Positions 26,882 to 30,410 of a DNA stretch of 64,000 nucleotides are shown here, piece by piece. The stretch is from Escherichia coli (GTDB lineage Bacteria > Pseudomonadota > Gammaproteobacteria > Enterobacterales > Enterobacteriaceae), in the NCBI RefSeq assembly GCF_003790525.1, contig NZ_CP033635.1, one strand, 5' to 3'. How positions within the stretch are numbered: position 1 is the first letter of the stretch; each line of letters opens with the position of its first letter. Position numbers and translations under genes: made by a program. The notes beneath the pieces were generated by a model. That model was not told the origin of the DNA. It searched no databases and saw nothing but the letters and a program-made list of their open reading frames with translations.

Positions 26882-26912
26882 CCAAAAGCAAAAACCCGCC
26901 TTGTGGGCGGGT
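26882..26912 (-). terminator. rho-independent terminator downstream of the tRNA-Phe 3' end
   Basis: Stem CCCGCC/GGCGGG (26895-26910) followed on the minus strand by a T-run. Confidence 0.6.
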
Positions 26913-26925
26913 TCTTAAGAATTAG

Positions 26926-26975
26926 TGGTGCCCGGACTCGGAATCGAACCAAGGACACGGGGATTTTCAATCCCC
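26926..26975 (-). other. pheV: 50-nt 3' fragment of tRNA-Phe (acceptor/T-arm through anticodon-stem region): island junction direct repeat
   Basis: Minus strand reads ...GGGGATTGAAAATCCCCGTGTCCTTGGTTCGATTCCGAGTCCGGGCACCA, matching the 3' ~50 nt of tRNA-Phe as I recall it; 5' part of the tRNA is replaced by unrelated/degenerate sequence. Confidence 0.75.
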
Positions 26976-27068
26976 ATGTCATAAAATTCAGATAGTTACG
27001 GGCATGTCAAGTTGTTGTCGAAGTCTTTCATGCGCATCCGATCACATAACTGTCGATAGGACGCAGAT

Positions 27069-27947
27069 ATGAAAATACTTCCCGTTGTCTCAACAAAAGG
27101 TGGCGAAGGTAAATCAACACAATCCGCTAACCTGGCTGGTTTTCTCGCCGATGCAGGTATCCGTACCCTGCTGATTGACGGAGATCATGCTCAGCCCACG
27201 GCAAGCAACATCTTTCCGCTGACATATGAAGCGTCAGCCGGTCTTTTTGAGTTGCTGATGCGCACGGCTGACCTCAGTTATCCCGATAACATCATTTCCC
27301 GCACAGCTATCGACGGACTCGATCTGATAGTCTCCAATGACCCTCATGAGCAGTTAAAAACTGCGATGCTTCACGCCCCGGATGGTCGTCTGCGCCTCCG
27401 GAATGTCCTGCAGCATCCGCTTTTTCTGAACAACTACGATGTCATTATAGTTGATTCTCAGGGTGCGCGTTCTGTCATGCTCGAAATGATTGTGCTGTCG
27501 GCCACTGATTCGGTTGTCGGGATGGTCAATCCGGTACTCCCTGATGTGCGCGAGTTTATTCGCGGCACTGTCAACGTTATGGAGAACCTGCTGCCTTACC
27601 GGGAACTGGGGATACCCCTGCCGAAAGTACGCACGCTGGTTAACTGCATGGATTATACGGCACTGGCCAGGAAGACGCTGGATGAGCTGGCCGGAATTAT
27701 TCAGACCGGTCGTTACAGCAGGCAGTTACCTGAAGGTGCGGTTTCCCTTCTTTCCACACAGATTTACGACCTGAATATTTACAAGCAGGGGCATGCGGCT
27801 GGTCAACCCGTACATCGTCTCGAAAAAGAATCCACACGTCGCAGTGATTCCGCGCTTGTCACGATGCACAGCCTGGCCTGTGAACTATTTCCTGAGTGGA
27901 AACAGGCGTTTGACGGGCTACTGGCTAACGGGGGAATACGTCAGTGA
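27069..27947 (+). CDS. parA: ParA/Soj-family partition ATPase (ICE end-proximal)
   Basis: 292 aa; deviant Walker A KGGEGKST; first gene inside the island next to the tRNA fragment, as in PAPI-1-type ICEs. Confidence 0.85.
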   Translation: MKILPVVSTKGGEGKSTQSANLAGFLADAGIRTLLIDGDHAQPTASNIFPLTYEASAGLFELLMRTADLSYPDNIISRTAIDGLDLIVSNDPHEQLKTAMLHAPDGRLRLRNVLQHPLFLNNYDVIIVDSQGARSVMLEMIVLSATDSVVGMVNPVLPDVREFIRGTVNVMENLLPYRELGIPLPKVRTLVNCMDYTALARKTLDELAGIIQTGRYSRQLPEGAVSLLSTQIYDLNIYKQGHAAGQPVHRLEKESTRRSDSALVTMHSLACELFPEWKQAFDGLLANGGIRQ

Positions 27948-28035: not shown

Positions 28036-28530
28036 ATGAATAACAGCAGCAATACCACAACCCGTAATACGCTTTCACCCGTTGAGTCAGCCTGTCATGC
28101 CTTACTGGATTTTATTGCCCGGGAAGTTTTTGAGAATAAAGCACCGGAAGAGGACGTCAGGGAACGTTGCAAAGTATTTACAGCGCTGCTTAACGAAGGA
28201 TTTAAAGCCCTGCTTGATGAGGCAGGGCTGAATCTGTCAAACCTTCGTAAACAGTGTGAGGAACTGGAATCTCAGATAACCAGACTTGATTCTCAGTCCG
28301 ATGCTATTTGTCGCAGAGGTGCTCAAATTGAACGCTTCATTGGTCACCATTTACCTTTTTTCGATTTGAACAAAGTTTTTGATACTGCCAGTCAGTCATG
28401 TGAACCAGCGCCTTCTCCGGCTCAGTCGGCTGTGTCCAGTAGTCAGCCCAGTAATCTGTCAGAGCAAGGGACATCTCAGCGGGTGTCATCTGTTCAACCG
28501 TTGCAGGGAGCCAGTGATGTTGATGAATAA
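28036..28530 (+). CDS. hypothetical ICE protein with Ser/Gln-rich acidic tail
   Basis: 164 aa; position between parA and dnaB; C-terminal region overlaps a competing minus-strand ORF (see findings). Confidence 0.5.
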   Translation: MNNSSNTTTRNTLSPVESACHALLDFIAREVFENKAPEEDVRERCKVFTALLNEGFKALLDEAGLNLSNLRKQCEELESQITRLDSQSDAICRRGAQIERFIGHHLPFFDLNKVFDTASQSCEPAPSPAQSAVSSSQPSNLSEQGTSQRVSSVQPLQGASDVDE

Positions 28531-29021
28531 GAGCAAACTTAACGGCTTGTTGAACGCTGATACTGTTATCGTCCAGAAAAAACCAGCGGCGGCTGTTAAT
28601 CAGCCAGTGTCCGAGCCAGCAAAGTCGGTAAGCGAGCTTCCGGTCAGCTCCGGGAAAGATTTCTGTTCCCTGGTCAAAGAAGGTTTTGCACCGTTCCACA
28701 TCGTCGGTGCTCATACCTCCGACTTTCCAGTTTTCATAATATTTTGCCATGTTGCCATCCTCATCATGGTTGTTATCAATGCCGGACGGCAGTTGCTGAT
28801 GATTTGTGTTCATAAGGTATTTCTCTTCGTAAACATGTTGATTATGAGCGCAAATATGCTGTACGTACCTTCTGACCGGGGTCGGCAAACTTACCGGTCG
28901 GAAAATGTACAGAAAGTTATGGGCCTTTTATGCCCTGCAACTGTTCGTCCGGCACCCGTTTTCGTTTTTTTGCATGGTGGGTTTGCTGTGAAACAGGCTC
29001 CGTTTGCCCGGGAGGTGGCGT

Positions 29022-30410
29022 ATGTCTGAACGCTATATTCCATGCTCCGTTGATGCAGAGCAGGCCGTGCTGGGCGGCCTGATGCTCGATAATGAACGCT
29101 GGGATGAGGTGGTACTGATGCTCCGGGGGGAGGATTTTTCTCTGGCCGCACACCGGGTGATATTCCGCACCATGTCAGAGCTGGCAACCAGCGGTCAGCC
29201 GTTCGACCTCATCACGCTGAGTGAGCATATTGAGAAAACAAACAATATTGAGGCACTGGGTGGTTTCGCTTATCTGGCTGAACTCAGCAAAAATACGCCT
29301 TCTGCAGCCAATATTATCGCTTATGCCCGTATTGTTGCTGAAAAGAGCATGCTGCGTCAGTTGCAGGAGACGGGGAATGCGCTGATTACGGATGTGGCCG
29401 CACCGGATGCGACACCACGCACTGTTCTTGAATCCGCTGAACGTCGGCTCTTTTCACTTTCACAGACTGGCATGTTGCATGAGCGATGTGAAGTCAGTCT
29501 CACCTCGGCTATGGAGCTGGCGCTGCGTCAACTGGAAGAGGGACTGAACGCCGGCGGGATGACGGGCACGCCCACGGGATTTGATGAACTGGATGAGATG
29601 ACCTGTGGTCTGCAGCCCGGCGACCTCATTCTTCTGGCTGCACGCCCGTCTATGGGGAAAACAGCGCTGGGCCTTACCTTCTGTCTTAATGCCCTGTGTA
29701 ACCGGACCGATGAAACGGTATTTCTTTTCAGTATCGAAATGTCCCGGGAGCAGCTGATTCTGCGTGTCCTGTCAATGCTCTCCAGGGTGGAGCTGACACG
29801 TCTTCGCAGCAGCATGATGGATGATGAAGAGTGGGCGAGAGTCACGGCAACCATGGGACGCTTCATGAATGAAGCGTCATTCATCGGAGATGGAAACCGC
29901 CTGATAATTGATGACACCTCCTTCCAGACGCCGTCATCGCTGCGTGCCAGCGCCCGTCGTTATGTCCGTCTGTATGGCAGACCTTCCCTGATAATGGTTG
30001 ATTACCTCCAGCTGATTCGTTCTCCGGACCAGGAGAACCGAACGCAGGAAATTGCGGAAATATCCCGCGCGCTTAAGGCGTTAGGTAAAGAGCTGGGATG
30101 CCCGGTACTGGCACTGTCTCAGCTTAACCGTCAGGTGGAGCAGCGGGCGGATAAACGCCCCAATAACGGTGACCTGCGTGATTCCGGGGCGCTGGAGCAG
30201 GATGCTGACCTCATTATGTTTATTTACCGTGACGAGGTTTATAACTCCGGCACGCTGGATAAGGGCGTTGCTGAAATCATTGTGAGCAAACAGCGGCAGG
30301 GACCAACCGGAACGATACGGGTGAACTTCGACGGCCGCTACACCCTGTTTTCACCGTTTGAACGTGGATGGAATTTTGACCGTGCCGGAGGAAATGCGTA
30401 TGTCAATTAA
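29022..30410 (+). CDS. dnaB: DnaB-like replicative DNA helicase
   Basis: DnaB N-terminal domain plus RecA-like core (Walker A ARPSMGKTAL); start set at ATG 29022 with GGAGGTGG SD instead of the TTG at 29004. Confidence 0.85.
   Translation: MSERYIPCSVDAEQAVLGGLMLDNERWDEVVLMLRGEDFSLAAHRVIFRTMSELATSGQPFDLITLSEHIEKTNNIEALGGFAYLAELSKNTPSAANIIAYARIVAEKSMLRQLQETGNALITDVAAPDATPRTVLESAERRLFSLSQTGMLHERCEVSLTSAMELALRQLEEGLNAGGMTGTPTGFDELDEMTCGLQPGDLILLAARPSMGKTALGLTFCLNALCNRTDETVFLFSIEMSREQLILRVLSMLSRVELTRLRSSMMDDEEWARVTATMGRFMNEASFIGDGNRLIIDDTSFQTPSSLRASARRYVRLYGRPSLIMVDYLQLIRSPDQENRTQEIAEISRALKALGKELGCPVLALSQLNRQVEQRADKRPNNGDLRDSGALEQDADLIMFIYRDEVYNSGTLDKGVAEIIVSKQRQGPTGTIRVNFDGRYTLFSPFERGWNFDRAGGNAYVN

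Follow-up and report, generated by a model that had tools for sequence, protein, structure and literature searches.

The 64,000-nucleotide (nt) window considered here, from contig NZ_CP033635.1 of Escherichia coli, is a conjugative island of the SPI-7 type, and the present analysis deals with the interval between its genes parA and dnaB-PI. On the minus strand this interval carries gene C; on the plus strand it carries two consecutive open reading frames (ORFs), ORF-A and ORF-B, and a structured element of about 180 nt. Comparison with related integrative and conjugative elements (ICEs) suggests that the conserved gene C is probably nested antisense in a translated 'bridge' ORF, both superimposed features being maintained. 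C would be a conserved helical protein of 158 amino acids (aa) from a small family, always encoded between parA and the helicase gene, against their direction, in this ICE family. The plus-strand bridge would be formed by the tail of ORF-A together with ORF-B in the window, and by a single ORF that connects the stop of parA with the start of dnaB in simpler relatives. The amino acid sequence of the bridge would be dictated by C and the structured element, the conserved properties being its openness, the Shine–Dalgarno (SD) site and the stop/start overlaps.

The original prediction, made from the letters of the window, described a plus-strand ORF with ATGs at 28517 and 28523 and a minus-strand ORF at 28337–28888 with an ATG at 28750. 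These features are all present, and we agree with its statement that the sequence alone does not decide between the two frames. On the other hand, the ORFs were called mutually exclusive, and this is not supported. Across lineages, the plus frame has stayed open and has kept its coupling junctions far more consistently than chance would allow; hence both frames appear to be maintained, each for a different reason.

The loci compared were those of E. coli (L003–L009), metagenome loci and the distant relatives L168–L175. Nei–Gojobori estimates demonstrate purifying selection on the putative gene C: the ratio of nonsynonymous to synonymous divergence (dN/dS) is 0.12–0.24 against four orthologues (about 74% identity, plus one close variant, L133) and 0.22 overall. 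In the six-frame test of the window against L009, the C frame has the lowest dN/dS in both sub-regions: 0.09 (dS 1.13) where C overlaps ORF-A, the range being 0.09–0.14, and 0.29 where it overlaps ORF-B, versus 0.93 in the B frame. The minus ORF does read as a real soluble protein, as was remarked earlier. Conservation had been suggested as the way to choose between the frames. It supports the predicted minus ORF as the sole frame conserved at the amino acid level, that is, as a protein, but it does not dispose of the plus frame, which is still kept open.

The minus-strand frame is open over 28337–28888, with a TTG at 28888 and ATGs at 28813 and 28750. The start at 28750 proposed initially has to be moved, as the conserved start of C is MNTNHQQLPSGID, that is, the ATG at 28813, and neither 28750 nor the TTG. 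All diverged versions of C, from E. coli L003–L009 and from metagenomes, open with MNT(N/E)..QLPSGID at the equivalent ATG. In relatives this ATG has an in-frame stop just upstream and a stronger SD, of the AAGGAG type. Gene C is cut short in some E. coli lineages (L003, L004, L005).

A search among 1.8 billion proteins with a profile built from C and its 142/143-aa paralogues yielded 29 representative relatives. They are 90–163 aa long and have a common core, L.YRL.WLG.WL ... H.WLP..V..MT..EM.LALT. The position of C between parA and dnaB, in the opposite orientation, is kept in the distant L169, L172/L173, L174 and L175, while the family member of L170 has a variant position. L168 (4001–4273) has a 90-aa member, P0025, in a phage-like region, where it is oriented divergently to a DnaG-zinc-ribbon/VapE primase gene and its mirror frame is closed; thus the C family seems to be tied to replication modules beyond the ICEs. 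The members outside the parA–dnaB setting (L168, L170) contain two mirror-stop codons each, hence the C family exists independently of ORF-B.

The AlphaFold2 model of C is all-helical, with a mean confidence (pLDDT, predicted local distance difference test) of 78, 63 residues above 90 and low confidence for the first 20 residues or so. C has no match in Pfam, PHROG or PADLOC and no structural neighbour, and C itself does not match NCBIfam NF033230 (the ECs1072 family phage-associated protein). Two distant members of the C family, P0025 (E = 4.5e-11) and P0011 (6e-5), do match the core of the ECs1072 family, which likewise comprises small mobile-element proteins; their scores, 43 and 23 bits, are below the cut-off of 70. 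In one more protein from the representative search, P0009 (2848 aa), 37 separate stretches match the core profile of the C family. Pfam gives it only fragmentary matches, with no stretch passing alone: Mpo1-like, best at residues 263–296, and a weak Microcin-immunity match. P0009 may be built of repeats, or it may be an artefact of composition.

ORF-A appears to be a real, narrowly distributed gene over its first 100 codons or so. In this part dN/dS is 0.25–0.31, with dS of about 0.9–1.3, against a 54%-identical orthologue. ORF-A is intact in all ten loci that bear it, and its homologues are found in E. coli only. In the tail, dN/dS is 2–5 in the A frame versus 0.09–0.14 in the C frame, hence the sequence of the tail is set by C. 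The tail frame is open in both diverged clades, although only 4.8% of control windows lack stops over 64 codons in this antisense register. The overlap of the minus ORF with the tail of this gene, noticed at the outset, amounts to 194 nt; the two conserved ORFs truly overlap, and there is no conflict between them.

The alignments demonstrate that the putative bridge frame of the plus strand is kept open and coupled to its neighbours, its product not being conserved. In every lineage the frame is open from the stop of the upstream gene to the start of the next one. In the window it runs from stop to stop over 28379–29029. The ATGs of ORF-B, at 28517 and 28523, lie 3–12 nt before the ORF-A stop (TAA, 28528–28530), behind the AGGGAG, and the TGA of ORF-B (29027–29029) overlaps the ATG of dnaB-PI (29022) as ATGTCTGA. 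Thus the coupling to both neighbours described originally is confirmed.

The junctions are also seen in other lineages. In the simple ones, a single ORF fills the whole gap between the stop of the upstream gene and the start of the following one. The bridge of L008 (3528–4259) has GGAGG followed by ATGA on the parA stop and ends with ATGCATAA on the start of dnaB; this locus has an element copy identical to those of Proteus mirabilis L114 and Providencia stuartii L039. In L172 the SD and the start are GGGGAGGGG...TAATG at the parA stop, and the end is again ATGTCTGA at dnaB. The L169 bridge starts with an ATG at 959, 8 nt before the parA end at 966, and reaches the next gene as ATGA, while that of L175 reaches it as GTGA and the L007-type bridge ends with ATGGCTGA. 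L174 and L004 have similar spanning ORFs, the ATG in L004 being at 3536 and the upstream stop ending at 3539. Gene callers sporadically call ORFs of 118–133 aa over or just after an element copy, overlapping the dnaB start (4588–4944 in the reverse complement of L009, 3375–3776 in L169). These are further instances of the bridge type, inconsistently annotated.

Only three codons of C close the mirror frame, namely TTA, CTA and TCA. They are absent from seven out of seven nested genes, at 30–40% protein identity between these lineages, while 0.9–4.8 are expected from parA/dnaB codon usage (for the six with local reference genes). Among 140-codon control windows from parA, dnaB and parB, the stop-free ones number 0/886, 0/469, 0/872, 18/479, 15/920, 235/496 and 20/497, that is, 0–4% in most loci versus 47% in the GC-rich L174. 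In C-type genes of E. coli, mirror-stop codons occur only at codons 143–149, exactly where the plus-strand reading is the A frame. The B frame is stop-free across the element (144–189 nt) in all eleven diverse copies, and the element lengths are multiples of three in seven cases out of seven. Finally, the dS of C is 0.38–0.44 under ORF-B versus 0.99 under the ORF-A tail and 0.98–1.09 in parA and dnaB, with mosaic recombination possible in L133. A cruder metric, coverage by open stretches of 40 codons or more irrespective of frame, gave a seemingly perfect result but was rejected, as antisense strands of real genes also score 0.6–1.0.

ORF-B is composed of three parts. Codons 1–99 are the codon-aligned mirror frame of C, with coinciding registers; about 60 codons run through the structured element; the last seven are derived from gene D, deleted from the window. 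In L006, gene D (4322–5047) lies between the element and dnaB and is coupled to dnaB; it is also present in L003, L004 and L009. The deletion left ORF-B in frame with the last seven codons of D. Our first conclusion, that ORF-B is a chimeric artefact made of a shadow of C, a non-coding element and a relic of D, was revised after the frame-maintenance results.

That the element is structured, as a predicted three-way junction, is shown by covariation. The fold was derived with RNAalifold and a covariance model, and the model finds the element in all distant relatives with E-values from 1e-13 to 1e-34. In 42 distinct element sequences, 96.5% of the cells are paired versus 31–39% in slid controls; compensatory double changes are seen in 26 out of 51 pairs, and none of 500 shuffles reaches the observed values. 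As it was fitted to the model, the alignment used leans towards the structure; the same helices come out of a MAFFT alignment made independently. The element is mostly helical, with few conserved unpaired bases. Over 100 E. coli genomes have it in conserved form, mostly without annotation. In relatives there are two or three copies per locus, each situated 40–190 nt upstream of a plus gene (A, D, dnaB or another), and each copy also starts a minus-strand ORF or its remnant.

The plus strand is favoured by the wobble cells, 218 G.T versus 20 A.C (4–7 versus 0–2 per copy in nine diverse copies), and pairing is 96.5% when read on the plus strand versus 86.9% on the minus strand. The folding energies of the plus and minus strands are −77.8 versus −64 kcal/mol as RNA and −36 versus −30.6 as DNA, with z = −4.8 for the DNA parameters. 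The leader of the minus-strand mRNA as the folded molecule is disfavoured by the asymmetry of the wobble pairs. In L169, L172 and L175 the 5' arm of the closing stem and the leader peptide of C change together, the pairing being kept; hence the leader of C is constrained by nucleic-acid structure. In L174 the closing stem lies in the 5' untranslated region, covering the SD. We favour the element being a plus-strand RNA feature that modulates the flow of ribosomes toward dnaB and/or masks the start region of C, because of its position in a stop-free frame and its better fold on the operon-sense strand.

Other candidate identities of the element, that is, a terminator, a sigma-70 promoter, a known Rfam family or a plasmid leading-region sequence, were rejected, as all searches were negative. 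There is no Rfam match with E ≤ 1 over 28700–29050 and no similarity to plasmids, leading regions included. No link to the small RNAs of S. Typhi SPI-7 (StyR-9 and others, PMC2943607) is evident, their coordinates and sequences not being available for comparison. Scans detect no intrinsic terminator at the element, and L008, L171, L172 and L174 do not conserve the T-run that follows the closing stem. No sigma-70 promoter with the −35/−10 consensus is found in or near the stems. Most lineages, the distant L174 and L175 among them, have the motif CACCCTTT(T/A)(C/A) after the closing stem (28959–28975 in the window); this motif is neither a clear terminator nor a full promoter.

The arrangement suggests the following mechanism. 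Ribosomes coming from the upstream gene would re-initiate on the bridge and pass the antisense image of C and the element at 28776–28958, and translation would be delivered to dnaB-PI. The bridge would thus spare the series of genes from parA to dnaB an untranslated stretch of 0.7–1 kb, so that Rho-dependent polarity would be avoided. We infer that the bridge is translated and kept for that reason, and that the element tunes expression of the plus or the minus strand. A more far-reaching version is possible, although we would not call it probable: the ICE family carries a wrong-strand gene in an essential operon by means of an open 'translational bridge' of 0.7–1 kb, the sequence of which would be of no importance, and the element inside the bridge, together with the C start, would be a switch that makes expression of C and of dnaB-PI mutually dependent.

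Several observations weigh against this reading. The support for B and C is purely comparative. With dN/dS of 0.70–1.2, ORF-B is not conserved as a protein, and the B-type products are rich in Cys, Phe and His, are 28% identical and have in common only motifs that mirror those of C, in line with the initial description of this ORF as junk-like. A stable 175-nt structure within a translated ORF is awkward, and a consensus scan yields no promoter for C. The coupling is not seamless everywhere: untranslated gaps of 88 nt separate parA and ORF-A in the window and of 19 nt precede ORF-A in L004, where copy a has this gap instead of a stop/start overlap. In the GC-rich L174 a stop-free mirror frame is not unusual, given the share of such control windows cited above. 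Since the lineages share ancestry, their independence is overstated by the combined probabilities. Long-range third-base identity at conserved C residues is barely raised, 0.50 versus 0.43 and 0.47.

If only C were expressed, ORF-B would be an untranslated shadow ORF, extended by chance through the non-coding element and the gene relic, and its openness would be a by-product of the codon usage of C and of sequence conservation. This account is unlikely in our opinion, but several points favour it. ORF-B does lie in the codon-aligned mirror frame of C, its dN/dS contrasts with 0.12–0.29 for C, its products are conserved only as the mirror of C, and its tail is a relic of the deletion. Further, the NCBI Prokaryotic Genome Annotation Pipeline (PGAP) leaves out the B-type ORFs in L005–L008, and the element is so conserved that its stop-free frames are partly inherited. 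Against it stands the lack of mirror-stop codons in seven of seven lineages, while the flanking genes of the same loci use them freely and the family members outside the parA–dnaB setting do carry them. The ATGA/TAATG starts and overlapped stops are kept at both ends, all indels of the element preserve the frame, and the dS of C is lower under ORF-B. A shadow ORF should accumulate stops, and stops do not build up in the B frame of diverged relatives at the rate given by local codon usage.

The opposite assignment, with the plus-strand ORF encoding a functional protein and C being the shadow, is very improbable. ORF-B is co-oriented and coupled with the operon in an island that is nearly all plus-strand, and most PGAP annotations of this exact sequence select ORF-A and ORF-B. 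Still, it is the C frame that has the lowest dN/dS, with dS near neutral where only ORF-A overlaps C; C-family proteins detected by the profile search occur in contexts with a closed mirror frame; C gives a confident fold, and the B-type products share mirror motifs only. Rather more plausible, but still quite unlikely, is that the element is a single-stranded DNA (ssDNA) signal of the transferred strand, being a single-strand origin or priming site or an Frpo-like promoter, which would prime the complementary strand and/or let the minus-strand C family be transcribed from incoming ssDNA. The strand-specific pairing, the good folding with DNA parameters and the preponderance of helices are consistent with this, the element adjoins the replication genes of the island, and the plus strand would serve as the template for C, one of very few minus-strand genes there; analogues are known in plasmid leading regions (PMC11541004). 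What speaks against it is that no −35/−10 consensus is found in or near the stems, that the element has no similarity to plasmids, leading regions included, and that the frame-preserving indels and the stop-free frame through the element point to a translated RNA.

The nested arrangement of gene C in a putatively translated bridge, which we retain, may be compared with known systems. Long antisense embedded overlapping genes with support from ribosome profiling have been described in E. coli O157:H7 (PMC9927249) and, as olg1/olg2, in Pseudomonas aeruginosa (PMC8850804). There, too, long ORFs occupy opposite strands of the same DNA and one of them is discarded by the pipelines as a shadow ORF. 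In those pairs, however, a young, poorly conserved ORF lies inside an old conserved 'mother' gene, whereas in the island the embedded gene is conserved, conservation of the enclosing ORF is limited to its openness and coupling junctions, and the support is comparative only. Translational coupling by termination–reinitiation at ATGA/TGATG overlaps is well known (PMC6728339, PMC10666635, PMC12548453). The bridge resembles it in the stop/start overlaps of 1–8 nt and the SD inside the upstream gene, at both ends and in several lineages. The difference is that normally two functional cistrons are coupled, while here a middle cistron without a conserved product would act as a relay across an antisense gene.

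The module parA-shi-bisD(parB-like)-bisC of ICEclc (PMC12409273) belongs to the same ICE superfamily and has the same gene order (parA, small gene or genes, a ParB-like protein, regulators) at the island end far from the integrase. Compared by description only, it differs in that bisD is downstream of parA and that neither an antisense gene nor a structured element is reported (PMC12409273). The Frpo/ssi ssDNA promoters (PMC11541004), single-strand origins and FinP-type cis-antisense RNAs are similar to the element, a strand-specific multi-hairpin of about 180 nt that occurs repeatedly in a mobile element and overlies the ribosome-binding site of the opposite gene. Unlike them, the element lies within a stop-free reading frame, and it has neither sequence similarity to them nor a recognisable −35/−10 in the stems.

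At present, annotation pipelines give now one and now the other of two incompatible annotations for the identical DNA; most E. coli records lack the conserved gene, and no annotation exists for the structured element. Should the bridge reading hold, the locus is a clean antisense overlap with both frames maintained, comparatively testable and conserved across genera. Selection would then act on the openness of a frame and not on its product, which bears on the disputed number of translated 'shadow' ORFs in bacteria and on why they are translated. A conserved protein family and a structured element are now defined at the entry of the parA-dnaB-parB replication/partition module of SPI-7/ICEPm1-type islands, which spread virulence and resistance genes in the Enterobacterales.

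Table. Features of the parA–dnaB-PI interval, in coordinates of the window
Feature	Position	Strand	Basis and remarks
parA	27069–27947	+	Pfam AAA_31/CbiA/ParA; PGAP 'ParA family protein'; heads the plus-strand gene series
ORF-A, constrained part, about 100 codons	28036–28336	+	Sole open frame of six; lowest dN/dS
ORF-A tail, 64 codons antisense to the 3' end of C	28337–28530	+	Unconstrained; first part of the putative bridge
Gene C (predicted), 158 aa, WP_001354423.1	28337–28813	−	dN/dS, synteny, homologues, AlphaFold2 model; start ATG 28813–28811
ORF-B, 170 codons	28517–29029	+	Open frame, AGGGAG at 28505–28510, coupling overlaps
Structured element, three-way junction, unannotated, one copy in the window	28776–28958	+	Covariance-model match of 170.7 bits
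Closing stem, 5' arm, 17 bp	28780–28796	+	Pairs with 28937–28954; minus strand encodes codons 6–11 of C (QLPSGI)
Hairpin over the C start codon, loop complementary to the C SD	28802–28855	+	Folding; absent in L174 (ATG outside the element)
Long imperfect hairpin, about 22 bp	28858–28917	+	Helices 4–5; 11 pairs with double changes
Small hairpin	28921–28936	+	GGGC...GCCC in the window, CGGGA...TCCCG in relatives
Closing stem, 3' arm	28937–28954	+	Pairs with 28780–28796
Relic of the 3' end of gene D (REVAYV*)	29008–29029	+	100% identical to L006 5026–5058
dnaB-PI, replicative helicase of the island	29022–30410	+	Pfam DnaB and DnaB_C; PGAP 'dnaB-PI: SPI-7-type island replicative DNA helicase'

There are E. 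coli chromosomes that match the window at 100% identity. In them the PGAP order of genes is ParA, hypothetical protein(s), dnaB-PI and ParB, and the genes of the island from parA to the type IV secretion genes are nearly all on the plus strand. The annotation of the interval is split: some genomes have ORF-A (28036–28530) and ORF-B (28517–29029), and elsewhere the same DNA has solely the minus-strand coding sequence equivalent to 28337–28813, that is, gene C.

In relatives, the interval is modular, a plus gene facing a minus gene with the element, in up to three repeats. This is seen at 4391–4606 and 5674–5890 in L003, at 4001–4219, 5008–5223 and 6125–6339 in L004, and at 3639–3857 and 4646–4862 in L005. 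Variants arisen by deletion or recombination between element copies are L006, lacking A and C, the window, lacking D, and L007, which has an 86-aa gene and the element only. A 17-nt pattern scan of genome contigs gave 120 matches, mostly by chance, with only Providencia L039 and Proteus L114 being genuine; in the metagenome scan nine of the 37 loci were chance matches within one unrelated gene.

In L133 (8912–9563), gene C is 95% identical to that of the window, with a B-frame dS of 0.05, while the adjoining element is far more diverged (dS 0.36), which points to a recombination breakpoint at the element. A third type of minus-strand ORF, 131–132 aa long (MNTSYQQLPSGIGSEVKYTLQFW...), is joined to the same leader as C in L003 (about 5327–5722) and also occurs in L009, L133, L148, L160 and L165. 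This candidate gene is antisense to the low-complexity tail of the plus gene D, and the architecture matches that of the A/C pair; it has no matches in NCBIfam or PHROGs.

Upstream of parA, at 26905–27005 on the minus strand, PGAP annotates a 78-nt 'tRNA-Ser' or 'tRNA-OTHER', but no tRNA is detected there by ARAGORN. Two-thirds of tRNA-Phe, from its 3' side (the GAA anticodon arm, the T arm and CCA), are present and followed by its terminator, whereas the 5' part is foreign; hence this is likely an att junction. On its 3' side lie an integrase and a pap/tia pathogenicity island, which suggests two islands in tandem at a phe tRNA site.

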